The notes below the pieces were generated by a model. That model had not been told where the DNA came from, made no database searches, and saw only the letters and a program-made list of their open reading frames with translations. DNA of 64,000 nt from Anaerolineales bacterium (lineage in GTDB: Bacteria; Chloroflexota; Anaerolineae; Anaerolineales; UBA4823), in the NCBI GenBank assembly GCA_020061105.1, contig JAGUYW010000002.1, forward strand, positions 110 to 64,109. Direction: 5' to 3'. Position numbers and translations under genes: made by a program. Shown one piece after another: positions 18,786 to 45,734 of the stretch. Position 1 is the stretch's first letter; each line of letters starts with the position of its first letter.

Positions 18786-19973
18786 ATGCCCAATAAAAAT
18801 ATCACCTTACTCGCCCTCAGCCAGGCCTTGACCTCCAGCGGCGCATCGATGCTGGTGTTCGTGGGCGGCATCACCGGCAGCCAGATCGCCCCCACCCCGG
18901 TGTTGGCAACCCTGCCGGTTTCGCTCATGATCGTTGGGGCGGCCTTGTCGACCATCCCGACCGCCCTGCTGCTAGGGCGCACCGGCCGGCGGCGCGGCTA
19001 CATGCTCGGCTCAGGCCTGGGCGTGTTGGCGGCTTTGTTGGCTGCCCTGGCAGTCCACGCCGGCAATTTCGCCCTGTTTTGCACCGCCGCCTTGTTGATC
19101 GGCGCAGGGATGGCCTTCGTCTTGCAATACCGCTTTGGGGCCGCCGAGAGCGTGGCCGAAGAGAAATCCGGGCAGGCGGTTTCTACCGTATTGCTGGGCG
19201 GCATCGCGGCGGGCTACCTTGGCCCAGAGATCGCCCGCCGCACCGTAGGGTTGTTCGGGCTGGAATCGTTCAGCGCCGCCTTCCTGATCCTGGCCGGTCT
19301 GTATGCAATCGCCATGGCGCTGCAATACACGCTAGACGAAATCGTTCCCCGCCAACAAACTTTCGACCAGCCGCCGCGCCCGCTGCGCCAGGTAGTTGTC
19401 CAACGCACTTACCTGGCAGCGGTCATGGCTGGCATGGTCGGCTACGCGGTGATGAGTTTTATTATGACCGCCACCCCGCTGCACATGCACAGCATGCAAG
19501 GCTTCTCGCTGGCAGACACTGCTTGGGTCATCCAAAGCCATATCATCGCCATGTACCTGCCTTCGTTGGTCACCGGCGCTTTGATCGCTCGTCTCGGGCT
19601 AGGGCGAGTGATGGCGGTTGGCGTCGTTTGTCTGTTAGCCACGGTTGCGATTGCCCTGGTTAACCCCCATCTACTCGGCTACTGGAGCGCCCTGGTGCTG
19701 CTCGGCGTCGGGTGGAACTTCCTGTTCGTGAGCGGCACGGTGCTGCTCACCCACACTTACCGCCCGGCCGAACGCTTCAAAGCCCAGGCAATCAATGATT
19801 TCACCGTTTCCTCCATTCAAGCCTGCGCCTCGCTGGCAGCCGGCAGCGTGCTGTTCGCCGCCAACTGGCGCACCCTGTTGCTGCTCAACCTGCCGGCGCT
19901 ATTGGCGATGAGTGTAGTGATTTTCTGGTCATGGAAACAGTTACAGAACCCGCTCGATGGCCACACGCTTTAG
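18786..19973 (+). CDS. MFS transporter
   Basis: About 12 TM; GRTGRR motif A, YRFGAAES, LGVGWNF. Confidence 0.9.
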   Translation: MPNKNITLLALSQALTSSGASMLVFVGGITGSQIAPTPVLATLPVSLMIVGAALSTIPTALLLGRTGRRRGYMLGSGLGVLAALLAALAVHAGNFALFCTAALLIGAGMAFVLQYRFGAAESVAEEKSGQAVSTVLLGGIAAGYLGPEIARRTVGLFGLESFSAAFLILAGLYAIAMALQYTLDEIVPRQQTFDQPPRPLRQVVVQRTYLAAVMAGMVGYAVMSFIMTATPLHMHSMQGFSLADTAWVIQSHIIAMYLPSLVTGALIARLGLGRVMAVGVVCLLATVAIALVNPHLLGYWSALVLLGVGWNFLFVSGTVLLTHTYRPAERFKAQAINDFTVSSIQACASLAAGSVLFAANWRTLLLLNLPALLAMSVVIFWSWKQLQNPLDGHTL

Positions 19974-22900: not shown

Positions 22901-23584
22901 CCCGCTCAGCGCCAGCGTACGCATCAACTGGTAATGCGCTTCTTCGCGCCAGGGATCGATCTGCAACTGCCGGCGGGCATAGCGCTGCGCTTGGGCATAA
23001 TCCCCGCTGGTTTCCGCATGTTCAGCCAACACATACAGCGTCTCCAGCGCCTGGCTGCGCAGCGCTTCGCGCTGCACCAGCAGCCATTCTTCAAATGGTT
23101 GGCTATCCAGAAAGAAACCTTCCAGCAGTTCGCCGCGATAAAGCTCCACCGCCTGGGCCAGGCGCTTGGAGCATGCGTTACAGTCCACCATTCGGACATG
23201 GCGGTGGGCGCGACATTCAGCCAGCAAGCCGGTAAAAATGGCGGTATCAACGCTAGCCAGGGGCGCATCCTGGCCTTCAGCGTGCAATGTAAACTGGATT
23301 GTCTTTGGGGTGACCTGTAAAACTGCCTGGGCAAGTCCCGCATCGGCATGCCCGAGGGCCGCACGCAGGCGGTGCAGCGCCAGGCGCAGGTTGTCGTGAG
23401 CTTTTTCGTCAGTCAATTCGGGCCAAAGCAGCCCAGCCAGGGCATCACGACGGTGAGGACGGTCAGAGCTGATCGCCAGGTATGCCAATAAAGCGCGTGT
23501 TTTGTCCGAGCGAAAGCCGGTAACAGGCGTATCTCCCAGAGTTACATGCAGCGGACCGAAGAGATTGAGTTTGAGATGCGGCAT
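19970..23584 (-). CDS. AfsR/SARP-type regulator (wHTH-BTAD-NB-ARC-TPR)
   Basis: ALLAYLA, LAGLLWPE, YRGELLEG, DPWREEAH, GPGGTGKS, LVLDNFE, GLPLGIEL. Confidence 0.92.
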   Translation of the reverse strand: MPHLKLNLFGPLHVTLGDTPVTGFRSDKTRALLAYLAISSDRPHRRDALAGLLWPELTDEKAHDNLRLALHRLRAALGHADAGLAQAVLQVTPKTIQFTLHAEGQDAPLASVDTAIFTGLLAECRAHRHVRMVDCNACSKRLAQAVELYRGELLEGFFLDSQPFEEWLLVQREALRSQALETLYVLAEHAETSGDYAQAQRYARRQLQIDPWREEAHYQLMRTLALSGKRRAALAQYEACANLLAQELGAEPEDEMQALYEQLLTGEKLLPETTSAVGEASGFPSLSTPFIGRLEELAQVEAALEQTDCRLLTLVGPGGTGKSRLAIQAGRKQAGARLNGAHFISLSGIDTPDFLISAIANALGISLRGRGEFQAQFLNALHNKEMLLVLDNFEHHIQAAPVLGEILNHTSGIKLLVTSRQRLNLPGERVITLPGLNYPAGKGTQKSWSDLEEFSAIQLFDEVARRQGVEIKNRPKDWPAIVQVCQLVDGLPLGIELAASWLCLLSPHEIAQEIERDLKFLAASQPDLPERHRSLQAVCDASWKLLEDEERTVLASLSVFRGGFTLEAARQVAGATPHLLSVFADQSLLRCKAEGYFEIHELLRKYAEAKLFEQPGECEATRRRYSEFYKVFAAQRQGALQQALKTGERPTEILAEFDRESDNLQASWQWLLRQPGDIGEIDLYVEGLGLVYDFLGRPQQAAWLYELVLERHAIDDPKKGAGQTNQYDDSHVNWEYNLGKAYLSLGRVEKGKQQIQTALKHLGQRLPSTTGSLTLALFGQVGLQVLLRILPVAVKQRWASGSEQYRQLAERAFAQLVEVSYISNQRLPSLYYALRVLNLAEGGGASPEQARTQANFCLGAGMLGLHGLAGDYYRQARQTAQQVDDALTHAYVFQVTGIYDIGLGRWESARQALAHAAQIFERMGYLRQWGECVMPQAVIASAQGNFRRVTDLLEVLFAASRESGDLLQEGWVLGERGYLELLSGEIESALATLQKLLEINTRIEHLPGIITARGLLSVAHLRRKEYLPARQTADAAAALIERSSHTVFTNIEGYSAVVETYLGLVELDGSSTSAERKALLRQASQVLKAMRIQGRGIPAGLARYWMQLGLWRWLEGAHRQAFREWQRGLECARRLKILYDQGRICYEIGRHLPISDPQRRVYLQQACQVLALIGEKYYLSRVQAEMGLESGDYARIGEFQETLF

Positions 23585-23942: not shown

Positions 23943-26900
23943 ATGAACTCGAAAATACAATTCTCCAATCGTCTTACTCGACAGAAGATGCATAAATTGA
24001 ATACATTGTTTGGGCTGGCTTTGTTTCTAGGCTTGCTCCTGGCGTTGACGCTGGTCTTGCCGGCGCGTTCAGCGGCCTTTTCAACGTACGTGGTGAATAC
24101 AACCAATGATGTGAATGACGGAAGCTGCAACAGCACTCACTGCTCATTGCGTGAGGCAATCAATGCCGCCAATAGCAACGCGGGTGCAGATACGATCACC
24201 TTCAACATCAGCGGCTGCAGCGGTGGGGTGTGCACCCTCCAGCCGACCAGCAATCTACCCACCCTTACAGATAGCGGCACAACCATCGATGCAACAACCT
24301 CAGCGAATTTCATTGAGATCAACGGCAGCAGCGCTGGCAGCGACGGGATCGGTTTAAAAATTACCTCATTCAATAACATCATCCGCGGCCTGGTGATTAA
24401 CCGCTTTGCAAGCGCGGGCATCGAAATTACCGGCGCCGGCGTGACGGATAATATCATCGAAGGCAACAAAATTGGCACAGATCCCTCCGGAACAATCGAC
24501 CTCGGCAATGGCGACGGAATTCGTATCAAGAATAATGCCTCAAACAACCTGATCGGCGGCTCTACCACAGCCCAGCGCAACCTGATTTCGGGCAACAACG
24601 TGGGGGTTAAGATTAATGGCGGAAATTTAAACAGCGTCTCTGGCAACTACATCGGCGTGGATGCCAGCGGCGCACTGGCGCTGGGGAACACATTTCAGGG
24701 CATCCTGGTACAGGGCGACTCGGATGAAAATGTGATCGGAGGTGATACTACCAGCCAGCGCAATATTATCTCTGCGAATGAGGTGGGTGTAGAGGTTTCC
24801 GGCTCGAGTGCAAGGAGGAATATCATTGGCGCGAATTATATTGGCGTGAGCGCCAACGGGACAGGGGATTTGGGAAATGCGCTGTATGGCGTTGCGCTGA
24901 AGGATGGTGCGCATCACAATACGATTGGCGGCAACACCGGCTCGCCGCGCAATGTGATCTCGGGCAACGGCAGCCACGGCGTGTTTATCTCTGGAGATGG
25001 AACCGACAATAATGTGGTGGCGGGCAACTTAATCGGCGTTGACAGCACAGGCAGCACGGCGCTGAGCAACAATGGGAACGGGGTGATCATCCGGAACCAG
25101 GCTGAACTGAACACGATCGGCGGCGATACCAGCACCGAACGCAACGTGATCTCGGGCAACAGCGAGAATGGGGTGGAAATCTATTTGGATAGCCAATACA
25201 ATCTGGTTACAGGTAACTATATCGGTTTGAATTGGAGTGGAACCGCCAGCCTGGGCAACACTCTGAATGGGATTTTGATTAGCGAAGGTTCGCATCACAA
25301 TACCATCGGCGGCGATCGTGATCTGGGCCTGGGAAATGTGATCTCCAAGAACCTGGAGAATGGGATAATGATCACCGGCGCCGGCACAGACAGTAATACG
25401 GTGGCGGGCAACTATATTGGGTTGAACCCGGCTGGCGCAACCTGGTTCGGCAATCATCTTAGCGGGATCAAAATCGAAGGCGGTGCCAGGTACAATATCA
25501 TTGGCGGCCTCCCATTGGATGGTTTTGGAAACGCCATCTCTTGCAATGAAGATTATGGAGTATTCATCAGCGGCAGCGCCACTGCCCAGAACGAAGTACG
25601 CGGCAATATGATTGGCCTGACAGCAGATGGAAGCGGCGTTCAGGGGAATGGCATGCATGGAGTCTTTATCAACGACGCGCCCAATAATGTGATCGGCGGC
25701 GCAAATTCCTTTCGCAACTGGATCTCAGGCAACGAAGGCAACGGCGTGACCATCAGTGGAGCAAATGCATCGGGCAACCTGGTAGCCGGAAATACCATCG
25801 GCCTGGATATCCATGGCCTTTCGAGCCTGGGTAATGAGCAAAGAGGGGTGTTGATCTTCAATGGCGCTCACCATAACACGATTGGGACAGAAATCGGCGT
25901 TGGTGGACGGAATGTGATATCTGGCAATGCCTGGAGTGGTGTAGAAATCGAAGGCAGCGCCACCCATCACAACACGGTTGCTTCGAACTACATCGGCGTT
26001 GATTTAAGCGGCGAACATGACCGGGGCAATGGCGCGCATGGCGTATTCGTCAACGCGGCGGTGGATAACACCATCGGAGGGTCTACGCTCGGCGAAAGCA
26101 ATTTGATCTCTGGCAACAGCTTGAACGGCGTGTATCTATACGCCGCAGTGGGTAATATCGTATCTGGCAACCTTATCGGCACAAAGTTATCTGGCGGCAG
26201 CCTGCCGAATGACGCCAACGGAATTACACTATCTGGCGGTGCAGCCAATAATGTGATTGGCGGCGACTCTGCTGGCGAGCGCAATACCATCTCTGGCAAC
26301 GGTGGGGATGGCGTATCGATCTTCGGCAGCGGCACAGATAACAACACCATTTCTGGCAACTATATCGGTATTAGCGCCAACGGGATCAGCGCAAATGCCA
26401 ATGGAGAAGATGGCATCTGGATCGGCGATCAGGCGTCTGGCAACCTCATCGGCGGCGATACAACAGAAGAGCGCAACGTCATCTCAGCCAACAGTTGGAA
26501 CGGCGTGGCTATCGCCAGCAGCGCCGACCTCAACACCGTCTCGGGAAACTATATCGGTGTTGGGGCAGACGGTGTAACCGGGCGTGGCAATGGGCGCAAT
26601 GGAGTATTAATCGAAGGTGCTTTAGATAACATCATCGGTGGAGATGTGATTGGCGAGCGCAATCTGATCTCGGGCAACGGCCAAAAAGGTGTGGCGATCC
26701 GTGGATCATCCGCCAGCGGCAACTCGGTTAGCGGCAATTTCATTGGCCTGGATAGCAGCGGCGCGCTTGCTTTGGGTAATTCCAACGGCGGGATCATGAT
26801 CGATGCTGGCGCAAACGGCAACACCATTGGCGGCGATACTGCTGGCGAGGGCAATGTGATCTCCGGTAACCTGGGTGGAGGCGTGGTGATCAACGCCAGT

Positions 26901-28568
26901 GGAACGGTGAACAATATCATTTCGGGCAATTACATTGGAACCAACGCCAGCGGCGCGAGTGCAGCGGCGAATCTTCACGATGGTGTACATATCCTGGCAG
27001 GCGCATCCCGAAATACCATTGGGGGTGATGCTCCTGGCGAGCGCAATGTGATCTCTGGCAACAGCCAGAATGGTATCTTGATCGATGACAGTGAGTCCAC
27101 CAACAATGTTGTTTCGGGCAATTATATTGGTCTCAACGCAAGCGGGACGAATGCGCTGCCCAATGGAATGAACGGGGTCATGCTCAACAGCAGCGCCACG
27201 AACAATACCATTGGTGGGGATACAACCGGCGAACGCAATGTAATCTCTGGCAATTATGATGATGGCGTGCATATCGGCAGCCTCGCTACCAGCGGCAACA
27301 TCGTTTCTGCTAATTTTATTGGAACAGACGCCGCTGGTACCGCCGCTAGACCCAACCTGGGTTATGGCGTCTGGATTGGCGATTCTGCCTCCGGCAACAC
27401 CATCGGCGGCGATACACCCGGCGAGCGCAATGTGATTTCCGGGAACCACTTAGCAGGCGTGTTCATCCAAAGCGGTGCAAACCTGAACACAGTCTCAGGG
27501 AACTATGTCGGCGTGACTCCCGCTGGAAATGCCGCCCTTGGAAATTCAGCTGGTGGGATTAAGATTATGGATGCCAACGATAATTTGATTGGAGGCCGCG
27601 CGGCGGGACAGGGAAATGTCATCTCCGGTAATTCCAGCAATGGCGTATGGATCACCGGCAGCGCTGCAACCGGTAATACTTTGGCGGGTAATTTAATCGG
27701 CCTGAGTTCGTCCGGCAGCGCTGTGATTCCAAACGGTGGCAATGGGGTTGTGATCAACAATGGCGCGCATGGCAATACAATCGGCGGCAGCCTGGTCGTT
27801 GACGCCAACTTTATATCAGGGAATACCCTGGCAGGCATCTACATCAGCGGCGTTAACTCCACTACAATCCAAAACAACTGTATCGGAACTGATAATAAGT
27901 GCGCCGCCTCAGCCGGCAACGGCAGTCACGGCATCTCGATTACTGGCTCGGCAACCCTGAATACAGTAGGACCGTCCAATCTGATCGCTTATAATGTTGG
28001 CAATGGCGTTCATATAAGCCAGAGCACTACCAAACAAAATCGCGTTACCCAAAACAGCATTTTTTCCAACGCCATGGGCATCGATCTGGTAGATGGCGCG
28101 AATGAAAACATCCCCGCTCCGGTGATCCAGAGAATTACAACGGGATTGGGAAATGTCGTGATCAGTGGTACAGCTTGTGCAGGTTGTCTGGTGGAGGTAT
28201 TCAGCAATCCTAATGGGGACGGCGAAGGAAAAACATACCTGGGCGCTGCCACAGCCACAGGTGGATTATTCTCATTGACTATTTCCACCCTAAGCGCCCC
28301 AGTATTAACAGCGACAGCCTATGATCCACGCAGAGGCACTTCCGAGTTCTCAGGAACGTTCTTCGTGCCGGGTAAAAACATCTTCCTGCCGTTGATCAGC
28401 GCAGGAACTGAAAAGCCCAAAGAAGGCGCTCAGGCGCAGTCTTGCTTACCATCAACCCTGCATGGTTATGGCGCGACCAGCAATCTCGCCATTTCCCCTC
28501 CGAACAAGCGCAGCGCGTTGCATCCAACACGGTCAACCACTTTTTCCCTTTCTGCGCTTACTGGATAA
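23943..28568 (+). CDS. Secreted CSLREA-domain, right-handed beta-helix repeat surface protein
   Basis: Signal peptide, HCSLREAINAAN, about 18 repeats of IGGDT.GERNVISGN..GNYIG, GTSEFS, IFLPLI motif. Confidence 0.9.
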   Translation: MNSKIQFSNRLTRQKMHKLNTLFGLALFLGLLLALTLVLPARSAAFSTYVVNTTNDVNDGSCNSTHCSLREAINAANSNAGADTITFNISGCSGGVCTLQPTSNLPTLTDSGTTIDATTSANFIEINGSSAGSDGIGLKITSFNNIIRGLVINRFASAGIEITGAGVTDNIIEGNKIGTDPSGTIDLGNGDGIRIKNNASNNLIGGSTTAQRNLISGNNVGVKINGGNLNSVSGNYIGVDASGALALGNTFQGILVQGDSDENVIGGDTTSQRNIISANEVGVEVSGSSARRNIIGANYIGVSANGTGDLGNALYGVALKDGAHHNTIGGNTGSPRNVISGNGSHGVFISGDGTDNNVVAGNLIGVDSTGSTALSNNGNGVIIRNQAELNTIGGDTSTERNVISGNSENGVEIYLDSQYNLVTGNYIGLNWSGTASLGNTLNGILISEGSHHNTIGGDRDLGLGNVISKNLENGIMITGAGTDSNTVAGNYIGLNPAGATWFGNHLSGIKIEGGARYNIIGGLPLDGFGNAISCNEDYGVFISGSATAQNEVRGNMIGLTADGSGVQGNGMHGVFINDAPNNVIGGANSFRNWISGNEGNGVTISGANASGNLVAGNTIGLDIHGLSSLGNEQRGVLIFNGAHHNTIGTEIGVGGRNVISGNAWSGVEIEGSATHHNTVASNYIGVDLSGEHDRGNGAHGVFVNAAVDNTIGGSTLGESNLISGNSLNGVYLYAAVGNIVSGNLIGTKLSGGSLPNDANGITLSGGAANNVIGGDSAGERNTISGNGGDGVSIFGSGTDNNTISGNYIGISANGISANANGEDGIWIGDQASGNLIGGDTTEERNVISANSWNGVAIASSADLNTVSGNYIGVGADGVTGRGNGRNGVLIEGALDNIIGGDVIGERNLISGNGQKGVAIRGSSASGNSVSGNFIGLDSSGALALGNSNGGIMIDAGANGNTIGGDTAGEGNVISGNLGGGVVINASGTVNNIISGNYIGTNASGASAAANLHDGVHILAGASRNTIGGDAPGERNVISGNSQNGILIDDSESTNNVVSGNYIGLNASGTNALPNGMNGVMLNSSATNNTIGGDTTGERNVISGNYDDGVHIGSLATSGNIVSANFIGTDAAGTAARPNLGYGVWIGDSASGNTIGGDTPGERNVISGNHLAGVFIQSGANLNTVSGNYVGVTPAGNAALGNSAGGIKIMDANDNLIGGRAAGQGNVISGNSSNGVWITGSAATGNTLAGNLIGLSSSGSAVIPNGGNGVVINNGAHGNTIGGSLVVDANFISGNTLAGIYISGVNSTTIQNNCIGTDNKCAASAGNGSHGISITGSATLNTVGPSNLIAYNVGNGVHISQSTTKQNRVTQNSIFSNAMGIDLVDGANENIPAPVIQRITTGLGNVVISGTACAGCLVEVFSNPNGDGEGKTYLGAATATGGLFSLTISTLSAPVLTATAYDPRRGTSEFSGTFFVPGKNIFLPLISAGTEKPKEGAQAQSCLPSTLHGYGATSNLAISPPNKRSALHPTRSTTFSLSALTG

Positions 28569-28733: not shown

Positions 28734-29966
28734 CTATCCGCAGCCGCCGCCGCTCTTATCGCGCTTGACCTCCAGCTTGATCTTGGGCGTGTAGTCGATT
28801 TTCCAATGGTGTGGATCGGGGAAGGAGGCCTCGTAGCGCGAGCCCAGGGCGGCTGGAAATTCGAAGCGAATGCGCTCTTCCCCGGGCAGGTTGGGCGTGG
28901 GCGTGATCTGCGGGTCGAAGGCCGAGAAGACCGCCAGCCAGTTATTGATCCCGCCTTCCAGGATGTACAGGTTGCTGACGCTTTCGGCAGTCAGCGTCTT
29001 CCAGGCCTGGGTAGCGGCGACTTCATCGTTGCTCATCAGCACTACCACCTGGTTGGGGATATAGCTGGCTTGCAACTCTTTGGCCAGGTCGAGCAGTCTG
29101 TCCATGGGTACGTTGCGCGCTCCTTCGATATGGAACAGGTTGTAGTCCGCTTCCGGGCGCACATCGATCATCACCAGCCGCAAGCCGTCATCGCCGATGC
29201 TGTGCAGCAGTTCGCCGGGGTGAATTTGCACCTGGCGGATGAGCAGCGCCGCCTCCTTTTCCAGCGAAATACGGCCCCACTTTTCGGCTGTGCCAGCATC
29301 GCCGATGAACAGCACTACCAGCGCCCCAATGAACAGCGCCCCGGCTGCCGCCACGCGCAAACGCGGCTCTTTTTTCAGGTCGCGCTTGCCGACGATACGC
29401 TCCAACTGCTCGGCGCCCCAGAACATGAACAGCGCCATCAGGATCACCCCTACCACCACCACGCCGGTCGGGACATTCAACCAGTCCTGGATCGTCAGGC
29501 GCCCATAATCGCTGCTGTTCCACCAGGCCTCATACAACGGCACGGTCTCGCCGAACAGAAAGATGCCGGCCAGACCGCCCAAAACGAAAAACAAACCGTC
29601 GATTTTGAAGGTTGCCATCGAGACCAGCGAGGTGCCCGGGCAAAAACCGCCAACAATGAAACCCACCCCCATGATCAAACCGCCAACGATGCCCGGCCAC
29701 AGGTAGGTGGGGTTGACCCAGATCTGGTTGTAATCCAACACGCCCAGGCCGACCATGATAAAGATCAGCACCATCGCAACCACGATGGCGGTGAACATCA
29801 CTTTCAGCACAGTCAGTTCGGTGAAGTAGAACTGCGCCGCCAGTTTCTTGGAATTGCCGAAGCCGGAAATTTCCAGGATATAACCAAAGGCAAAACCGAT
29901 CAGGCCAAACACTACGAACATGAGCGGTTTGCCGAGCAAGGTTTCTAAAGGTAATGGGAAAGCCAT
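28734..29966 (-). CDS. YeeE/YedE sulfur-transport domain fused to a rhodanese-like domain
   Basis: GFGNSKKLAAQFY, GGFCPGTS, IDVRP..HIEGA..LEGGINNW; C-terminal GGGCG. Confidence 0.88.
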   Translation of the reverse strand: MAFPLPLETLLGKPLMFVVFGLIGFAFGYILEISGFGNSKKLAAQFYFTELTVLKVMFTAIVVAMVLIFIMVGLGVLDYNQIWVNPTYLWPGIVGGLIMGVGFIVGGFCPGTSLVSMATFKIDGLFFVLGGLAGIFLFGETVPLYEAWWNSSDYGRLTIQDWLNVPTGVVVVGVILMALFMFWGAEQLERIVGKRDLKKEPRLRVAAAGALFIGALVVLFIGDAGTAEKWGRISLEKEAALLIRQVQIHPGELLHSIGDDGLRLVMIDVRPEADYNLFHIEGARNVPMDRLLDLAKELQASYIPNQVVVLMSNDEVAATQAWKTLTAESVSNLYILEGGINNWLAVFSAFDPQITPTPNLPGEERIRFEFPAALGSRYEASFPDPHHWKIDYTPKIKLEVKRDKSGGGCG

Positions 29967-29975
29967 GGCAATCTC

Positions 29976-30533
29976 CTATCTCCACAACTTGCGCACGAAA
30001 TACGCCAGGGCGTATGCGCCGGCAAAGACCGAAAACATGAAGACCCACGAGCCCAGCGAAAGCGTCGCCCCGCCGGAAAGGGCCTGCCCGCTGGTACAGC
30101 CACGCGCCAGGCGCGCCCCATAGCCCATAATCGCCCCGCCGCCAAAGGCAGCCAGCCAGCGCATGCGCACGGATATGTTGGGGCCTTTGTTGGTTTCCAC
30201 TTTCAAGCGCCCGTTCATCCAGCCCGAAACAAACCCGCCGATGATCGTTCCAAATACCGCCGGCACAATCCAATCGTCCAGCGGGTTTTTATCACCGCCC
30301 GCCATGCGCAGCAAATATGAATTGCGGTCGACATGATCTGGCGCGATCTGATCTTGCACCGCCACGATCATACGATTCAAGCCCCCCGAAGCGCCCAGGC
30401 CGTTGCCAGTCAGGAAAAAGGCCAGGAAGAGTAGAATTCCCAGCAATGCCCCGCCCAGGTAGGGGTGCACATAATCTTTTTCCGGGCGGCGCCAAAATGA
30501 TTTTTTCTTTTGAGCAGGTGCTGCTACACTCAT
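29976..30533 (-). CDS. YeeE/YedE family thiosulfate-transporter half protein
   Basis: PYLGG, GLGASG, GARLARGCTSGQALSG. Confidence 0.9.
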   Translation of the reverse strand: MSVAAPAQKKKSFWRRPEKDYVHPYLGGALLGILLFLAFFLTGNGLGASGGLNRMIVAVQDQIAPDHVDRNSYLLRMAGGDKNPLDDWIVPAVFGTIIGGFVSGWMNGRLKVETNKGPNISVRMRWLAAFGGGAIMGYGARLARGCTSGQALSGGATLSLGSWVFMFSVFAGAYALAYFVRKLWR

Positions 30534-30572
30534 CGATACCTCCAATTTTTTTTCGCGGTTGGCCTTCGGCGA

Positions 30573-33476
30573 TCAGCTTTCGGCCTTTTGATTTTCTGGG
30601 CCGGCGGCCAGCGGCTGGTTTGGGCTCTCAACATTGTCCAACGCTTCTGCAAGATCGTCCAGCGCCTCCTGCTCGACAGTTTGCGCCAGGGCCTCGCTTT
30701 CTGGTACAGCCAAACCTTCAATCTCGACTGTTTCGGGCTCAAGCCCGCTTTCGTAGCGCTCGCGTTCGATTTCAAGCTCTTCAGAGCTTTCGGCCGATCC
30801 AGGCATTTCGGCGCTCTCAGCCGTTTCAAGCTCGTGTTCGTCGCCTTCGTGTTCCACATCTTCCCAGCCATTCACCATGGCTTTGATTCCCGCCAATGGT
30901 TCATGTCCGGTAGTAGTCAGGTAAACATGCCCGACGATAAAAGAGCCAAACACCCAGGCCACCAGGCTGTGGAAGGGCGCCAGGAAAGGCAGCCCACCCA
31001 ACATCCCAGCGATCGCAGGCCACTGCTGCACACCCCACATCAGCGCCCCCGTGATGATCTGCAAAGGTAGCAACACGTTCAGGATGCCAAAATACGTGGC
31101 CTGCTGCAGTGGATTGAGTTTTTTCTCAGGCGTTTTCTCGAAGGGGTGTTCGCCCCCCTTAAAGATGCCTTGCAGGTAGAATTTGGCCTGCACAATGGCC
31201 TGGTCGAAGAAACCATAGGGGCGCGGGATATACTGGCGAATTTCGCCGCTCACCAGGTGGTAGAACAATGACAGAAAGGCGTTGATTACCAGGATTGCTG
31301 CCAGCACATTGTGCAGCGTGACCATATAGCGGAAACTCAGCCAGCCGAACAGATCCGGACGGTGGATGATTAAGCCGGTAAACAGCAGCAGGGTGATGGT
31401 GAAGGTTTGCAGCCAGTGCCAGAAGCGTTCGTACACGTGATACATATACACCCGCTTCAGTTTCGGTTGGCGGCGCGGTTGGCGGATGGCGTTGTAGAAA
31501 CGCAGCCCGCCATGCCCGGCGACTCCCATCAGCACGCCCACAAAGAACAAGGCGCCCAACCAGTCGATCCAATTGACCCGGTTGTGGCCGAAAACGTACA
31601 GGCCATGGTCACTGGTGATGGGTGAATAAACCAGCGCGCCATCCTGCACTGTCAATCCAGAGGATGGCGAGGCATTTAAGCCTTGCACAAAATCTGGCGT
31701 CACCCCACCCGGCAAGTAATCCGATAGCGCCATCCCCGCCGCCAGGCGTGAGTTATCCGAGTGGCAGGCCTGGCAATCGCTGACCGCCCATTCGCCGCGC
31801 GTCACATTGTGATTGATGCTGTAGGGTTGGATGCTGCCCTGGATGCGCGGGTTCGCCAGCCCCAGCGCCTGCAAACGCCCGGCAATCAAGGCTTGCTTCT
31901 CGGGAGTGTCCAGGCGCAGTTCGATCGACGAAAGCGCTCCGTCGGCGTTGGCGTCGAAGGCCTGCACAATCTCTGCGGGGTACTTCCCGCCTGGCAGCCA
32001 GGCCGCTTGCAAATCTTCCAGGCTCACCGGGCGTGTCCCGGCCGGTATGTCGTGCACCCACACCCAGGCGGCAATCAGGTTATACGGCGCCAACATGGTC
32101 TGCCCGTCGATATTACGGCGCTGCAGGGTGACCGGTTGGAAGCCGCTCACCAGGTCTTGCAGGCTGTCTCCCTGGCCTTCTACGCCGCGCAACTGCCGCA
32201 GCGGCTGCCCGTCGGCTTGAAGAGATGTCCAATCCATTGCCTGGATGGCGAGGGCGTAAAGCTGCGGGATATGACAGGTTTCGCAGGCCACGCTTTGCAT
32301 GTGGCGTTCGACATACGGCAGCCAACTGCCGTGGTGGCTCGAGTCGTGGCAGCTATCACAGCGCCGCATGGTGCCTTTCAAATCGGCCGCCAGGTTGGTT
32401 TGGGCGCTCTGGCCGCGCGCAAAGTTGTGATCGGGCTTTTGTAGATACTCGCCAATCTCCAGGCGGCGTGGATCGAACTGCAAATGCCCCGGACGGCTCT
32501 CAGCGCTGGCCTGGTAATAGACCGGGTTGTTGAGCGAGAAGTGGCAATCGGTGCACTGCAAGCCGCGCTCAGCGTGGATATCCCACGAGCGCGCCAGGCT
32601 GGCTTTATTGGCCAGGTTCATGCCCGATTGATTAATGCGCTGACCGGCGATCACTTCGCCGGTGGTAGCGGTTTGCCAGTTGTCCAGCGAGACGCCCACC
32701 AGGGTCAACGGTTGGGCCGGGTCGCTGTGGGTCACACCATGGCACTGGGCGCAGTTTTCGTTGCGCGGATCCTGGATTTTGACGAACTCCGCCAACAGTT
32801 CGCCGTTCTCGCCAAAGGCCGCCGGGTTGTAAGAATAGGCTGCGCCGCTGGCTTCAACCACCCCTGCTCCCAGCAATGTAGCCGTGCTGGCCCATTCGCC
32901 GCGCCCATCCTGGATGACCTGGATGCGAGCAGCATTGTTTGGGCTGGGCGTGTGGCAAAGGAAGCAGTTCATCTCCACTCCGCTGGCAACCGCCGGGCCG
33001 CCGCCCACCAGGCGAGCCGCGTTGAATTTCACCCACTCGGCCGCATCCAGGTCAACCTGGCTGTCACCGGCGGGCGTGAGATAGCGATAGGTCAGCGGGT
33101 TCCACTTGCCATACAACCCCGGGCTGGTATCCCAGGCCTGCCCGCCAGCGATCTGCCCGGGGGCGCTTTGCTCGCTCAGCCCCAGGTCGGCGTGAAAACT
33201 GCGGCTGGCGATGAATGCGGTATCGTGACACTGACCACAGGTTTGCATGGCAGAGATTGCCGCCCCGCTCTTCAGCACATGCTCCCCGTTCTGATCCAAC
33301 AAGGCAAAGCTTGGGTGCAGCGGAGAGACCTGGGCGGGCTGCCCCGCCAGGCGCTTAGCCGAAACCGCCCCTACGCCCAGGGTGATGACCAATGCTAAGG
33401 CCAACAAACCCAGAGCGCCCCAACGGGTGAAAATTATTTTTGGAAGGATTTTTTTAAAGTTTTTCATCTTGCCCAT
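30573..33476 (-). CDS. Multiheme cytochrome c (7 CxxCH) fused to a cytochrome b/b6 (FdnI-like) membrane domain
   Basis: CGQCH, CFLCH, CAQCH, CTDCH, CDSCH, CETCH, CQACH; ERFWHW, LHNV, KLNPLQQ, FHSL, GHVYL; start could be 33476 or 33467. Confidence 0.9.
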   Translation of the reverse strand: MGKMKNFKKILPKIIFTRWGALGLLALALVITLGVGAVSAKRLAGQPAQVSPLHPSFALLDQNGEHVLKSGAAISAMQTCGQCHDTAFIASRSFHADLGLSEQSAPGQIAGGQAWDTSPGLYGKWNPLTYRYLTPAGDSQVDLDAAEWVKFNAARLVGGGPAVASGVEMNCFLCHTPSPNNAARIQVIQDGRGEWASTATLLGAGVVEASGAAYSYNPAAFGENGELLAEFVKIQDPRNENCAQCHGVTHSDPAQPLTLVGVSLDNWQTATTGEVIAGQRINQSGMNLANKASLARSWDIHAERGLQCTDCHFSLNNPVYYQASAESRPGHLQFDPRRLEIGEYLQKPDHNFARGQSAQTNLAADLKGTMRRCDSCHDSSHHGSWLPYVERHMQSVACETCHIPQLYALAIQAMDWTSLQADGQPLRQLRGVEGQGDSLQDLVSGFQPVTLQRRNIDGQTMLAPYNLIAAWVWVHDIPAGTRPVSLEDLQAAWLPGGKYPAEIVQAFDANADGALSSIELRLDTPEKQALIAGRLQALGLANPRIQGSIQPYSINHNVTRGEWAVSDCQACHSDNSRLAAGMALSDYLPGGVTPDFVQGLNASPSSGLTVQDGALVYSPITSDHGLYVFGHNRVNWIDWLGALFFVGVLMGVAGHGGLRFYNAIRQPRRQPKLKRVYMYHVYERFWHWLQTFTITLLLFTGLIIHRPDLFGWLSFRYMVTLHNVLAAILVINAFLSLFYHLVSGEIRQYIPRPYGFFDQAIVQAKFYLQGIFKGGEHPFEKTPEKKLNPLQQATYFGILNVLLPLQIITGALMWGVQQWPAIAGMLGGLPFLAPFHSLVAWVFGSFIVGHVYLTTTGHEPLAGIKAMVNGWEDVEHEGDEHELETAESAEMPGSAESSEELEIERERYESGLEPETVEIEGLAVPESEALAQTVEQEALDDLAEALDNVESPNQPLAAGPENQKAES

Positions 33477-33517
33477 CGTTCTTTGCAATCTGTGGAATCT
33501 GGCAAGGCCAGTCAAAA

Positions 33518-34978
33518 TCACTTCTGGACGGAAGTGGAGCTCTTGCCAAAACGCCCGCCCCAATTGAGTGGGTCGCCCGGGTAGCCCAAGGCTTGCCAGT
33601 CCAGCCGCCCTTCGGCGCTGTGGCAGGCTTCACACTGCAAGGATTTGTCCTTCGACTGCACCATGTGGGTGGTCGGCCAATACATCCAGGTCTCGGTGAA
33701 GCCATATTGCCCGCTGTACGCCAATCCCATCACCTCCTCGGCTAACCGGAAAGCGCGATCCCAATCGAAATGCGTCCAATATCCATCCACCCCGGCGGTA
33801 ATCGGCGCCAGGATATAGTTATAACCCGTGTCGTAAGGCTGGTTGGCGACATGGATTTTGAAGGGGAAGATCTTGGCGCTGGGGTCTTTGATATCGCCGG
33901 CTGGCAGGTTGATATAAGTCGGCCCATTCTCGGCGATCGGGTCGCCCAGGATGTAGCGATATTCAAGATTACCGTTGAACCAGGTGTAGGTAGGCAAAAA
34001 CTTGCGTTCGTAGATAAATGTGCCCTTAATCTTCAAATACGTGTAATGATCTTCAGCGATATCCTGTCCAGCCGTCGACCAATCCCAATAGGTCTTGGTA
34101 GGGTCTTTCAGCGCCATCGATGGGATGTGGCAAGTTTGGCAAGCCACCGATTGCACGTGGGCGTTGATGCGCTGGTCGCTATGCGGCTGCTCGATATGGC
34201 AATCGGTGCAGGCAACCTGCTCTTGCGGGTCGATCACCATGTTATCCGCCACCATGCGCCCTCGGATGACATGATCTTTGGTGCGGTGGCAGTCGGTGCA
34301 CAGGAAATCAGCCCGCCCCATGTGCACATCCAGGTTCTCGCTGGGGAAATACAAGCTTTCATCCAGGTCGCCGTGTTTGACGCCATTGCCGCCGCCGCCG
34401 TCGAAGTGACAGGCGCCGCAGTTATCACGCGTCGGGTTGCGCACGCTCTTCGCTGCCGCCAGCAAGTCGACGCCTTCTGCCGGTTCGCCATACTGGCCTT
34501 TGTAGTACACGTTCATGTCGGCGTGGCAGGCCAGGCAGTCCACATTGAGTTGGTTAGAAAAGTCGTAGTCGGCGCGTTCTTCCCACCCATAGCCAATATG
34601 GCAGGTCATGCATTGACGCTGGTTGCCCTGGGCGCTAATGCAGAAGTTATTGATCTGGTTCGCCTTACCGATCGTAACTGGCTCGTCGCGCCAGGCCACT
34701 TCGAAAGGCTCGCTTTCCCAGGTCCAGTGGGTGGTTTGCATAATCTGTCCAGCCGCCTCGGGATGGCATTCCAGGCAGGCCTGGGTGACCTGCTGGCCGG
34801 TCTCATATGGGCCGCGCATCAGGTCGGTATGCGGGGTATGCACTTGGCGGGCTGGCATAAAGGCCCGCGGCGTATCTTGGGCTTGCACCTGGCGCGGCCA
34901 AAAGATGATCACCGGAATGGCAATCACCAACAAGGTCAAGCCAAGCCCGATCAACCAGGTTGGAATCTTCTTCTTCAT
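33518..34978 (-). CDS. otr: Octaheme tetrathionate reductase-family cytochrome c
   Basis: 8 CxxCH; HWTW, GKANQINNFC, GVKHGDLD, KIKG, KIFPFK; N-terminal TM anchor. Confidence 0.88.
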   Translation of the reverse strand: MKKKIPTWLIGLGLTLLVIAIPVIIFWPRQVQAQDTPRAFMPARQVHTPHTDLMRGPYETGQQVTQACLECHPEAAGQIMQTTHWTWESEPFEVAWRDEPVTIGKANQINNFCISAQGNQRQCMTCHIGYGWEERADYDFSNQLNVDCLACHADMNVYYKGQYGEPAEGVDLLAAAKSVRNPTRDNCGACHFDGGGGNGVKHGDLDESLYFPSENLDVHMGRADFLCTDCHRTKDHVIRGRMVADNMVIDPQEQVACTDCHIEQPHSDQRINAHVQSVACQTCHIPSMALKDPTKTYWDWSTAGQDIAEDHYTYLKIKGTFIYERKFLPTYTWFNGNLEYRYILGDPIAENGPTYINLPAGDIKDPSAKIFPFKIHVANQPYDTGYNYILAPITAGVDGYWTHFDWDRAFRLAEEVMGLAYSGQYGFTETWMYWPTTHMVQSKDKSLQCEACHSAEGRLDWQALGYPGDPLNWGGRFGKSSTSVQK

Positions 34979-35038
34979 GAAAGCTCCTTGTGTTTTCAAG
35001 CTTTAATTGTCTGGCGGCGATTCCCGTCGCCCGGCAAT

Positions 35039-35368
35039 TTACCCCTCGATCAAGCTGGCGCGGTAGGCAATCCGGTCGCGCAAGACCGCTCCCAGCAGAT
35101 CAAGCGCTTCGATCAGGCGCGGGTCGGTCAGGCGATAATTGACCGCCGGTCCCTGTCGCACAGGCTTTACAATGCCACAATCGCGCAGCACCTTCAGGTG
35201 GCGTGACGCCGCTGGTTGGGTGATGCCCACCTCTTCCGCCAACTCAGAGACATTGATATCGTGTTCATTCAATAAATACAGCATCAAAATCCGCTTTGGG
35301 TCAGCCAAAGCGGCGCACATATCCGCATGCAGACGGTTGATTTCTTCGGTCAACGAATTTTTATCCAT
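35039..35368 (-). CDS. ArsR/SmtB family regulator
   Basis: HADMCAALADPKRI..VSELA..ASRHLKVLR. Confidence 0.92.
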   Translation of the reverse strand: MDKNSLTEEINRLHADMCAALADPKRILMLYLLNEHDINVSELAEEVGITQPAASRHLKVLRDCGIVKPVRQGPAVNYRLTDPRLIEALDLLGAVLRDRIAYRASLIEG

Positions 35369-35491: not shown

Positions 35492-35536
35492 TTGACACCC
35501 CATTTAAGTGAATGTATTATTATCGCATGTCGATAA
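35492..35536 (+). promoter_or_regulatory. Sigma70 promoter and PadR-type operator
   Basis: TTGACA-17-TATTAT followed by the palindrome TTATCG-CATGT-CGATAA. Confidence 0.6.
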
Positions 35537-35856
35537 CGAAATCCGATAAAATAACACGGAATTTCTTCTTGGGGTTCATCCGCCTGCATATCCTGTTCCA
35601 TGCCTCCCAGGAGCCGGTGTACGGGTTGGATATGATCCGTGAACTGGCTCGCCACGGTTACAACCTGAGTCCAGGTACGCTCTACCCCGTTTTTCACAGA
35701 CTGGAAAGCGATGGCTTTTTGCAATCCGAGAAACGCGTGGTGGGCGGAAAAGTGCGCAAATATTACACCATCACCGCCGCCGGGAGACAGGCCCTATCCG
35801 AAGCCGAGATCAAAGCACGCGAACTGATTGGCGAATTGGATATCCAATCTGACTGA
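35527..35856 (+). CDS. PadR family regulator
   Basis: IRLHILFHA..YGLDMIRELARHGYNLSPGTLYP..RKYYTIT. Confidence 0.93.
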   Translation: MSITKSDKITRNFFLGFIRLHILFHASQEPVYGLDMIRELARHGYNLSPGTLYPVFHRLESDGFLQSEKRVVGGKVRKYYTITAAGRQALSEAEIKARELIGELDIQSD

Positions 35857-35952: not shown

Positions 35953-36342
35953 ATGGAACACAAAAAGGCAAAAATGAGCAAACCTGCAAAGAAAAACGCC
36001 GTCTGCAACACCTGCACGATTCGCCTGGTGCAAATTGCTTACCAGCGCGCCCCTTGGTTTCGTCTGCTGCGAGAGCCGTTGAGAGGCGGCATGCGCGTTC
36101 TGGCTTTTTTCCACCGCATTGACCCAGATGAGTATGAAGTGCGCACGGCTTCTTGCTATGGTTGTATGCGCTTCTACAAGGTAGCCTTGAAAGAAAAATC
36201 CGCCCTGTTCCGGTGGTTAAACGAGCGCGCCAACCCGCTCTTTGACGCCGTCCTGGAAAGCATCATCACGCCCCAAGAGCTTCAATTGGCGAAAGAGCAC
36301 GCTCGAGCCGCAACAGCGGGAAAGTTGGACCCGCCAGTATAA
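35953..36342 (+). CDS. Hypothetical protein with two CxxC motifs
   Basis: CNTC and CYGC; start could be 35953 or 35974. Confidence 0.75.
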   Translation: MEHKKAKMSKPAKKNAVCNTCTIRLVQIAYQRAPWFRLLREPLRGGMRVLAFFHRIDPDEYEVRTASCYGCMRFYKVALKEKSALFRWLNERANPLFDAVLESIITPQELQLAKEHARAATAGKLDPPV

Positions 36343-36380
36343 ACAGCATCGAACAGGTCTTCACGATTATGGAGAGTAAA

Positions 36381-36728
36381 ATGAACTATTTGTTTGTCAT
36401 CAACGATGGCCCGTACGGCAGCGAGCGCCCGTACAACGCCTTGCGCATGGCTTTGAACCTGGTCAAGGGCGAAAATATCAAAGTGCAAGTATTCTTAATG
36501 GGCGACGGTGTGCAGTGCGCCGCGGCGCGCCAGAGCACTCCTGAAGGCTATTACAACATCGAACGTATGTTGAAATCGATCGCCCGGCGCGGCGAAGTAG
36601 CCACCTGAGGGACATGCGCCCAGGTTCGCGGGCTCGAGCCGCAATATTTGATCGAAGGTGTGCAGACCGGGACGATGGATTTATTGGGCGATTGGAGTGT
36701 GGAAGCCGGGCAGATTGTGGTGTTTTAA
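36381..36728 (+). CDS. DsrE/YchN-family protein with in-frame UGA (predicted selenocysteine, UGTC)
   Basis: PYGSERPYNALRMA..FLMGDGV..EVAT[TGA 36606-36608]GTCAQVRGL..TMDLLGDWSVEAGQIVVF*. Confidence 0.85.
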
Positions 36729-36780
36729 GCTTCGTATCCGGGCGGGGATGGGCGCACGTTGTACGCCTATTCCCCTCGCC

Positions 36781-38127
36781 TCACCCCTGACTGCAAAACT
36801 CACTCACCACCTGCCACAACGCCGGCAACCCACTGCGGATGGTGGCGACGGGGATGCGTTCGTCGTGGCCATGCGCCATCTTCATCAGCGGTATTTCCGG
36901 AGGTAAAATCCCCGGCGAGAAGCCGTACATTTTCATGCCTGTGCGGCTGTACATGCTGGCGTCGGTCGCTCCTGGCAGCATCGTTGGCATGATATAGCCA
37001 CCCGGGTCCATACGCTGCGTAGCCTGGGCCATCAGGCGATAAAGCGGTGTATCCATCGGCGCAGACGCTCCGGTCGATGAAGCAATCACTTCCAGCTTGA
37101 TGTGTTCGCCCATCACCGCCTGGATTTCACGCATCGCATCCTGGGCGCTTTGACCAGGCAAGATGCGGCAGTCGAGCTTTGCCATCGCGCTGGAGGGAAT
37201 CACGTTGGTCTGCGCGCCAGCCTGTAAAATTGTTGGGCTGACCGAATTGGTCAGCAAGGCGATAAACAGGCTGCGCTGCTCAGTGGGCAAGCGGCGCAGC
37301 AGCACGCCAGCCAGGGCAGGGTTGCGCAGCAGCCCAATCACTGTCCCGGTCGGAAATGGCTGGCTCTTCGACAGCGTCTCTAACATCGCCAGCACCGGCG
37401 GAGTCAGGTGCACCGGCAGATGGACAGCCCTGCGCAGCCGTTCAAGCGCCTGCGCCAGGCGCAGCACAGCATTTTCATCGTGTGGCATCGAGCCGTGCCC
37501 GGGTCGACCGTGAGCAGTTGCGTTCAGCCAGCAGACGGCCTTCTCGGCGGTTTGGATCGGATACAGGCGCGCCCCGCCCATGTGAAAAGTCAAACCGCCG
37601 CTCTCCGTGATCCCAAACTCGGCGTCGATTAACTCACGATGCTCATCAACCAGGAATTTCGACCCATACGTGAAGCCAACTTCCTCATCGGCAATCGCCG
37701 CCAGGACCAAGTCGCGCTTGAGCGGCAGTTTCTGGCGAAAGGCCAGCAGAAAAACTGCCAGGTAACTCGCCAGCAAGCCCTTCATATCCAACGCCCCCCG
37801 TCCCCACACCTCGCCGTCGATGACTTCGCCGCCGAATGGGTCGTGCGTCCAATGCTCGCGATCCACCGCTACCACATCGACATGCCCGGAGAGCAGCAGC
37901 GGGCGCTGCGAGCCATCGCCCTTCAGCCGCGCCACCAGGCACGGGCGCTCGGGCAATTTTGCCACGATGGTGTAGACATCTTCTGGCACGCCAGCCGCCT
38001 GGAGTATTTCCTGAATCACCCGGATGGCGCGAATTTCGTTCCCCGGCGGGTTGACCGTCTCAGCCTGAATCAGGCGCGAGAGGTTCTTGACAGTCTCGTC
38101 AGTTAGTTCATCCCAATTGATTTCCAT
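36781..38127 (-). CDS. M20/M25/M40 family metallo-hydrolase
   Basis: GHVDVV, GRGALDMK, ADEE, GHGS, TDA, HGHDER. Confidence 0.93.
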   Translation of the reverse strand: MEINWDELTDETVKNLSRLIQAETVNPPGNEIRAIRVIQEILQAAGVPEDVYTIVAKLPERPCLVARLKGDGSQRPLLLSGHVDVVAVDREHWTHDPFGGEVIDGEVWGRGALDMKGLLASYLAVFLLAFRQKLPLKRDLVLAAIADEEVGFTYGSKFLVDEHRELIDAEFGITESGGLTFHMGGARLYPIQTAEKAVCWLNATAHGRPGHGSMPHDENAVLRLAQALERLRRAVHLPVHLTPPVLAMLETLSKSQPFPTGTVIGLLRNPALAGVLLRRLPTEQRSLFIALLTNSVSPTILQAGAQTNVIPSSAMAKLDCRILPGQSAQDAMREIQAVMGEHIKLEVIASSTGASAPMDTPLYRLMAQATQRMDPGGYIMPTMLPGATDASMYSRTGMKMYGFSPGILPPEIPLMKMAHGHDERIPVATIRSGLPALWQVVSEFCSQG

Positions 38128-45018: not shown

Positions 45019-45150
45019 GCGTAACAAACGAAAATCGGCGATCTATTCACCTGGGATTAAGCATAGGCCCACGGAAAGCTATTCATGATCCTGATTCGGC
45101 GGTATAATAATTTTGTAATACGTTTTTTTACGATCAAGAAAGGTAAAACG

Positions 45151-45366
45151 ATGGACACTTCCGTGATCTCTTCCAAATATCAGGTCGTTATCCCGCGAAA
45201 AATCCGCGAGAAATTCAACATAAAACCTGGACAAAGAGTTCTTTTCATCCCCTACCAGAAAAGCTTGCGCCTGGTTATCGTTCCCAGCATCGATGAGGCT
45301 TATGGAATGTTAACTGGGATGAATACAGAAAATTTGCGCGAAGAAGTGGATGAAGAGCGATGTTAA
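45151..45366 (+). CDS. vapB: AbrB/MazE-fold antitoxin
   Basis: ISSKYQVVIPRKIREKFNIKPG. Confidence 0.88.
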   Translation: MDTSVISSKYQVVIPRKIREKFNIKPGQRVLFIPYQKSLRLVIVPSIDEAYGMLTGMNTENLREEVDEERC

Positions 45367-45734
45367 ACTTAATTGACTCTTCTGGTTGGGTAGAGTATTT
45401 AACCAAAGGAAAAAACGGTCCAGTTTATTTTCCAATCATCCAGGATACAGCCAATTTAATCGTCCCAACAATCGTCATCTATGAAGTCTTCAAACGGGTG
45501 GCATCTCAATTTGGAATAGAAACTGCTCTTGAAGCAACAGGAGTGCTTTCTTCTGGAAAGGAAGCCGTAATCGATCGTACAATAGCCATCGACGCAGCCA
45601 AAATATCTCTTGATTTCAAGCTGGCAATGGCAGACAGCCTGATCCTGGCAACTGCCCAAGCATATGATGCGATATTATGGACTCAGGATGCACACTTCAA
45701 AGATTTTCCAGGCGTGCGTTACTTTGAGAAATGA
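45360..45734 (+). CDS. vapC: PIN-domain toxin
   Basis: IDSSGWVEY, YEV, MADSLILATA, TQDAHF; overlaps the antitoxin. Confidence 0.92.
   Translation: MLNLIDSSGWVEYLTKGKNGPVYFPIIQDTANLIVPTIVIYEVFKRVASQFGIETALEATGVLSSGKEAVIDRTIAIDAAKISLDFKLAMADSLILATAQAYDAILWTQDAHFKDFPGVRYFEK

Follow-up and report, generated by a model that had tools for sequence, protein, structure and literature searches.

The 64,000-nucleotide stretch of Anaerolineales DNA analysed here (the window), taken from a 54%-complete MAG, contains an open reading frame that raises the question of whether it ends where annotation ends it. The frame starts at ATG 36381 and meets an in-frame TGA at 36606-36608, where the table-11 ORF list terminates it, and ORF callers and databases carry its first 75 codons only. 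Behind the TGA the same frame is open onward to a TAA at 36726-36728. This TGA is the only one in frame within 36381-36728, and reading it as selenocysteine (Sec, U) gives a protein of 115 residues (...EVAT-U-GTCAQVRGL...QIVVF), with MNYLF as the equivalent start in homologues. An initial annotation had proposed that the full frame encodes a DsrE/YchN protein, that the TGA stands in place of the first Cys of the family motif, and that UGA encodes Sec76. The features of the gene and its surroundings are listed in Table 1.

Table 1. Positions in the window of the TGA-containing gene, here DsrE(U), its predicted signals and its neighbours.
Feature	Position	Strand	Remark
YeeE/YedE-type sulfur-transport protein fused to rhodanese	28734-29966	-	
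YeeE/YedE-type sulfur-transport protein	29976-30545	-	
Multihaem cytochrome fused to cytochrome b561, 996 aa	30573-33563	-	
Multihaem cytochrome, 493 aa	33518-34999	-	
ArsR/SmtB-family regulator, divergent	35039-35368	-	Shares 36-41% identity with the ArsR genes found immediately 5' of DsrE(U) in many relatives
Promoter-like site	35492-35520		11/12 consensus positions; consensus match only
PadR-family regulator	35512-35856	+	First gene of a possible PadR / 129-aa / DsrE(U) unit
129-aa Cys-rich protein	35953-36342	+	38 nt upstream of DsrE(U); no Pfam or NCBIfam family
Shine-Dalgarno-like GGAGAG	36371-36376	+	4 nt 5' of ATG 36381; read from the sequence, function presumed
Full CDS of the DsrE/YchN-like predicted selenoprotein	36381-36728	+	115 codons and TAA stop
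In-frame UGA, predicted Sec76, motif U76-G-T-C79	36606-36608	+	TGA alternates with TGC/TGT at one column
Bacterial SECIS-type hairpin	36623-36640	+	Comparison, covariation and published constraints

The protein encoded across the TGA matches the DsrE family profile PF02635 with 68 bits (cut-off 22.7). The match places residues 1-115 on positions 1-116 of the 116-position profile, so the 39 codons behind the TGA belong to the domain, and the frame is that of a full-length DsrE/YchN protein, as proposed. Apart from the window gene, PF02635 finds only one decayed copy in this genome. In a phmmer search against the PDB, Escherichia coli YchN (1jx7) is the sole sequence at E<=0.01 (E 1.4e-18), and the alignment pairs U76 with the leading Cys of the YchN motif C-K-T-C. 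An AlphaFold2 model, built on an alignment of full-length homologues (A3, described below), has a mean pLDDT of 95. After residue 76 it contains a helix (77-82), a strand (94-97), a second helix (99-108) and a last strand (111-114). Sec76 itself occupies the junction between a beta-strand, which it ends, and the N-terminus of helix 77-82; Cys79 follows three residues later. Judged by this model, a product of 75 residues would be missing one third of the fold. Foldseek ranks YchN first (TM 0.92, rmsd 1.5, 36% identity over the structural alignment), followed by DsrE (2hy5_A, TM 0.89) and TusD (2d1p_A, TM 0.89).

Within this fold, the window gene encodes a YchN-type protein and not a TusD/DsrE subunit or YedF: it consists of a single DsrE domain of ~115 residues, YchN is its closest known structure, and its CxxC-type motif lies at a strand-helix junction. 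YchN is likewise a stand-alone member of the DsrE superfamily, of 117 residues compared with 115 here, and has its CxxC at the same place; the two differ in that YchN has Cys where the window protein has Sec, and in that YchN lacks Cys46, which is invariant in 49/49 rows of A3. Subunits of the TusBCD and DsrEFH complexes (2d1p, 2hy5) share the fold, whereas the window protein stands alone, and no genes for TusB/C-like or DsrF/H-like partners adjoin it in the window. Assignment as a TusD/DsrE sulfur-relay subunit was rejected on the NCBIfam models TIGR03012 and NF001237, which score 34.5-34.7 bits against cut-offs of 89-92 and align with the N-terminal 86 residues of the protein; the TusC match is also below threshold. 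U76 presumably lies near the position of the active-site Cys78 of TusD/DsrE. YedF combines a TusA domain with a DsrE-like domain and a CGxC motif, and resembles the window protein in the DsrE-like fold, in the C/U-G-x-C motif and in an occasional linkage to selD. It was rejected as an assignment (TIGR03527): there is no NCBIfam match to YedF at E<0.01, and the window protein has no TusA/SirA domain.

We next consider what relatives of the gene carry at the TGA codon. A protein search returned 2465 homologues. Among the best 120 of these, 34 entries, including the window's own (P0014), are 74-81 residues long, show identities of 80-100% and break off precisely at the TGA, and the full-length homologues have Cys at the corresponding column. 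In the alignment A3 of 49 full-length sequences 44 rows have Cys at this column, 4 have Trp and 1 has Ser, and Cys46, Cys79 and Arg83 are invariant; together with the C-K-T-C of YchN, this confirms the TGA as the counterpart of the family motif's first Cys. Among 60 genomes of the same family or order, 9 contain a homologue, and in 9/9 the gene has a single in-frame TGA at the same codon. At the DNA level, 90 genome loci were collected, 10 of them (the window included) from the relatives' genomes and 80 from a further search, and TGA occupies the codon in 51 and TGC/TGT in 39. Of 70 metagenome loci fetched, 59 could be parsed, with TGA in 36, TGC/TGT in 23 and TGG in none; no TGG is present at this codon in any of the 149 parsed DNA loci. 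The Cys/UGA alternation that the initial annotation called for is thus found in both collections, and the TGA, far from being unique to this assembly, is kept by relatives. In addition, the codon at 36606-36608 is covered, with no difference listed, by contigs with 90-99% similarity to the window from three further public runs. We refer below to loci with TGA at this codon as Sec forms and to those with TGC/TGT as Cys forms.

The distribution of the two forms follows the phylogeny. On a quick maximum-likelihood tree with 78 Sec and 59 Cys rows, 137 in all, computed with the trait column masked, 4 label changes account for the forms, compared with a mean of 44.5 after shuffling, which indicates that one large, mostly Anaerolineae clade uses Sec. 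Some loci depart from the general picture. L135, a metagenome locus, is a Cys form (TGC) that lies among Sec forms by sequence and is without the hairpin described below, a combination that suggests a Sec-to-Cys reversion. L170, also from a metagenome, has TGA in a divergent motif, A-U-S-G-C, and the usual hairpin is absent. L021 (G021:C3, ~202759-203111) keeps the TGA, but 9 inserted nt interrupt its hairpin and a frameshift follows shortly afterwards; this copy is probably decaying. In two betaproteobacterial loci, L066 and L086, two Cys-form DsrE/YchN paralogues are arranged in tandem.

The same TGA codon with an open frame behind it is kept across relatives, so the open tail is not a matter of chance: TGA followed by an open 39-codon tail is present in 87 loci, down to ~57% identity. 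To these 39 codons we applied a comparison of substitution rates between the window gene and 77 other Sec-form genes. pN is smaller than pS in 77/77 comparisons (mean pS 0.64, mean pN 0.29), and dN/dS of the tail is 0.13-0.40 in the closest pairs. Judging from these substitution patterns, the codons behind the TGA are translated and under purifying selection. These results bear on the reading in which the TGA is a true stop, the product being a 75-residue fragment or the locus a pseudogene whose frame is open by chance. Gene callers do end the gene there, as P0014 and the 33 other entries of 74-81 residues among the 120 best matches attest, and the genome does hold a decayed copy of the gene on another contig. 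That copy, however, shows what real decay looks like (its N-terminus is lost, and it has acquired a TAG and a frameshift), whereas the window gene belongs to the 87 loci with the open tail, its tail evolves with pN<pS in every comparison, and two strands and two helices of a confident model come from the tail. We therefore regard a true stop as very improbable, and the 75-residue database product is an annotation artefact.

A UGA decoded as Sec in bacteria is expected to be followed by a SECIS hairpin, and the TGA in the window is followed by a hairpin with a stem of 36623-36628 (GGUUCG) paired to 36635-36640 (CGAGCC) and an apical loop at 36629-36634 (CGGGCU). According to the legend of Fig. 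2 in PMC13188914, bacterial SECIS elements have a loop of 3-9 nt with G in the first two loop positions, a stem of 4-16 bp, a distance of 16-37 nt from the UGA and a minimum free energy of at most -7.5 kcal/mol. The window hairpin, with 6 bp, a 6-nt loop carrying G at position 2, a UGA-loop spacing of 20 nt and an energy of -7.7 kcal/mol, lies within these limits, the energy narrowly. A hairpin within all four published limits is present at that place in 81/85 Sec forms versus 4/60 Cys forms, and in many relatives the stem is 7 bp long and capped by a GGUC tetraloop. The initial annotation had pointed to two other short hairpins downstream of the TGA (GCCC/GGGC at 36618-36633 and GGC-UCGA-GCC), on which it did not base a confident SECIS call; neither of them is the conserved element, which the comparison of relatives now identifies.

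The conserved helix is also recovered by covariation. RNAalifold, applied to 49 Sec-form sequences (L021, with its 9-nt insertion, and L061, which was not parsed, are outside this set), returns exactly the 6-bp helix, with double changes in 3/6 pairs. Pair 21-32 is CG in 30 sequences, UA in 15, UG in 3 and AU in 1 (n=49) and is never broken; one of its bases falls at a third codon position and the other in the middle of a codon for Glu, Gly or Val. Across the alignment, 80.9% of the cells are paired, versus at most 45.7% with shifted partners. Changes on both sides affect 24 cells, versus 8.6 +/- 2.2 in shuffles (0/500 as high), and pairs with a double change number 4 versus 2.5 (15/500 as high); these shuffle controls overstate the significance, as related sequences are not independent. 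Part of the conservation of the hairpin is protein-driven, since it overlaps the conserved codons A-R-G-L/I. In near-identical strains, represented by contigs of three other runs, position 36625 is C for T, which turns a U-G wobble of the stem into a C-G pair. Folded as a single sequence, the 71 nt of 36600-36670 are no more stable than shuffles (z = 0.76; 155/200 fold as well), so the SECIS call rests on comparison and not on thermodynamics. An Rfam scan of 36300-36800 found no relevant family, the one hit being a chance snoRNA match with E 9.8.

Selenocysteine insertion also requires that the organism possess the decoding machinery. The source genome contains selA (541 bits, cut-off 268), which speaks against a complete lack of Sec machinery; selB, selD and tRNA-Sec were not found over cut-off in this 54%-complete MAG. 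The ORFs beside selA were considered as selB and ruled out, as they encode DnaK and a peptidase. Of the 60 related genomes from this family or order, 52 have a selD that exceeds the cut-off, which in nearly all cases itself contains one in-frame TGA; a selB above cut-off is present in 46 and a tRNA-Sec of at least 64 bits in 47. For the 9 relatives that hold the gene, the counts are 8/9 for selD, 7/9 for selB and 8/9 for tRNA-Sec. The source genome has a second TGA-interrupted gene, which encodes an AhpC-TSA/Prx-like protein with the motif U-P-H-C, a known selenoprotein type (contig C74, 80155-80532).

We also considered that the UGA might be decoded as one of the standard residues Trp, Gly or Cys, either by a near-cognate or suppressor tRNA or under a reassigned code. 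Five database entries (P0002, P0015, P0016, P0018 and P0019) have W at this column, and all of them come from contigs of 1123 nt or less. A metagenome scan with P0002 recovered relatives of at most 79% identity, all with TGA, and did not recover the contig of P0002 itself; the W in these entries probably comes from a metagenome gene caller that applied table 4 to a TGA codon. Against a standard residue, none of the 149 parsed loci has TGG. The codon TGA terminates 16 of the 39 Pfam-backed ORFs of the window and many of the Sec-form genes themselves, which means that TGA has not been reassigned. Furthermore, the column is a catalytic-type Cys in the forms without TGA, a SECIS-type hairpin goes with TGA at this codon and not with Cys, and the clade carries selA, selB, selD and tRNA-Sec. 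We give this explanation very little credence.

Taken together, the alternation of TGA and Cys, the purifying selection on the tail and the hairpin in 81/85 Sec forms lead us to consider that 36381-36728 very probably encodes a YchN-type DsrE-superfamily protein of 115 residues, with selenocysteine inserted at UGA codon 76, as the initial annotation had inferred. SelB- and SECIS-driven insertion of Sec is an established mechanism in bacteria. In the window gene, a ribosome would arrive at the UGA with a hairpin located 17-35 nt downstream, whose G-rich apical loop would be bound by SelB together with Sec-tRNA(Sec). The Sec-tRNA(Sec) borne by SelB would then allow insertion of Sec instead of termination. 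This assignment leaves what is known of Sec decoding unchanged. As annotation cuts the window gene at the TGA, and likewise 33 further entries of the best 120 matches, both the selenoproteome counts of Anaerolineae (Chloroflexota) and the functions ascribed to it are understated.

Selenoproteins of this kind have been described before. The sections available of Zhang, Fomenko & Gladyshev 2005 (PMC1088965) describe a DsrE-like selenoprotein family (Pfam02635, UxxC) from two Sargasso Sea sequences, with a SECIS in their Fig. 3. As far as the corresponding parts of the later sources go, a DsrE-like selenoprotein is listed for Desulfovibrio vulgaris in a 2006 survey (PMC1794560), and the family appears in reviews of 2022 (PMC9312934) and 2026 (PMC13188914). 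The statement in the initial annotation that Sec-containing DsrE-like proteins have been reported agrees with all four. The published family and the window gene have in common, as far as the former is described in these sources, the Pfam domain, the UxxC motif, the alternation of Sec and Cys and a SECIS-type hairpin after the UGA. The published members in these excerpts, which describe neither their gene neighbourhood nor their function, are the pair of sequences from the Sargasso Sea and a single protein from a deltaproteobacterium, and our comparison of them with the Anaerolineae clade is by description. It is strongly supported that the window gene is a mis-annotated member of a selenoprotein family known since 2005. 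To a family represented by few sequences in the source material above, the present analysis adds 87 loci and a clean SECIS with covariation. For the related SaoD family, the corresponding part of a preprint (bioRxiv 10.1101/2022.07.06.499078) states that it never occurs as a selenoprotein. Among the papers on selenoproteins and Anaerolineae listed in a literature search, judged by titles and the beginnings of abstracts, none is about this family, and the literature searched yielded no paper linking YchN with sulfide.

The surroundings of the gene offer some indications of its function. In the window, the 129-aa gene is possibly co-transcribed with DsrE(U). Its product has 125 homologues, mostly from Chloroflexota and without a Pfam family. 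Neighbour counts here and below refer to loci with enough flank: the 129-aa gene lies directly upstream in only 2/71 Sec-form loci and is therefore not a conserved partner, 4 further Sec-form loci have a PadR homologue at most 4 kb upstream, and the PadR / 129-aa arrangement recurs in few loci only. The genes on the opposite strand from 28734 to 35368 look like a unit for respiration or transport of sulfur or selenium compounds. Neither an SQR-like gene nor selD is found beside the window's own copy.

Among the relatives, an ArsR homologue is nearby in 32/62 Sec-form and 17/52 Cys-form loci; its specific NCBIfam matches, BigR included, are all below cut-offs. An SQR-like flavoprotein is nearby in 21/56 Sec-form and 10/51 Cys-form loci. 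It contains Pyr_redox_2 and an FCSD central domain. Of the NCBIfam models, NF049943 ('type III sulfide quinone reductase, selenoprotein subtype') matches it best, at 234.8 bits and thus short of the cut-off of 525. The flavoprotein gene lies just downstream of DsrE(U) in L030 (4352-5593) and in 20 other Sec-form loci. In five loci (L016, L039, L042, L043 and L055), a selD with its own in-frame TGA is located ~1.2 kb upstream of DsrE(U), usually with the SQR-like flavoprotein downstream; four of these (L039, L042, L043 and L055) also have a divergent LysR.

The fold, the U76/C79 motif and the neighbours in relatives (ArsR, SQR-like, selD) suggest that a role as a chalcogen carrier or redox protein in the handling of sulfide or sulfane sulfur is most likely. 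U76 would carry or reduce a chalcogen adduct, either a persulfide or a selenenyl-sulfide, and C79 would resolve it. What we have in mind for a chalcogen carrier is the role that we assume for Cys78 of DsrE/TusD and for the DsrE-like domain of Staphylococcus aureus CstA. The combination of an ArsR-type regulator, an SQR-like flavoprotein and sometimes selD provides a testable lead to the function of YchN-type proteins.

Instead of carrying sulfur, the protein might be a selenium-trafficking factor that passes reduced selenium to SelD, similar to the role proposed for YedF. selD is located directly upstream on the same strand in 7/54 Sec-form versus 0/41 Cys-form loci, and a divergent LysR is present in 4/31 Sec-form loci. 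[quoted passage not shown] The neighbouring flavoprotein also weakly matches TIGR03169, 'Nterm_to_SelD' (76.6 bits, cut-off 310). However, the selD arrangement is confined to a minority of loci that are mutually related, selenoprotein genes are often near sel genes for regulatory reasons, and no model of YedF matches the protein at E<0.01. Moreover, there are Cys forms that share the ArsR and SQR-like neighbours in lineages without an adjacent selD. On this evidence selenium trafficking is an unlikely role, and we keep to a chalcogen carrier or redox protein for sulfide or sulfane sulfur.

A more specific form of the chalcogen-carrier role would make the Sec-YchN clade of Anaerolineae a dedicated chalcogen shuttle that works with the type-III SQR-like flavoprotein and, in some lineages, with SelD. 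Such a shuttle would take up sulfane sulfur or reduced selenium as an Se-S or Se-Se adduct on U76 and then hand it on. We consider this proposal speculative and rather doubtful. If it were true, a selenoprotein would have a share in supplying the selenium, or in detoxifying the sulfide, by which its own synthesis is controlled, with regulation by a persulfide sensor of ArsR/BigR-like type, and the YchN-type family would have a first role.

A few further observations concern the source genome and the window. On contig C74, the Prx-like gene stands directly before the decayed second DsrE-like copy (G000:C74:80155-80957; loci L022, L176 and L180), which retains the TGA and a hairpin with the GGUC loop. 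Elsewhere in the window are two large STAND-type proteins with NB-ARC and TPR domains (12265-15147 and 19970-23584, both on the minus strand), one of which has a BTAD domain, a 1541-aa beta-helix (NosD-like) protein (23943-28568, plus strand), and a pair consisting of a MazE-like antitoxin and a PIN-domain toxin (45085-45734, plus strand).
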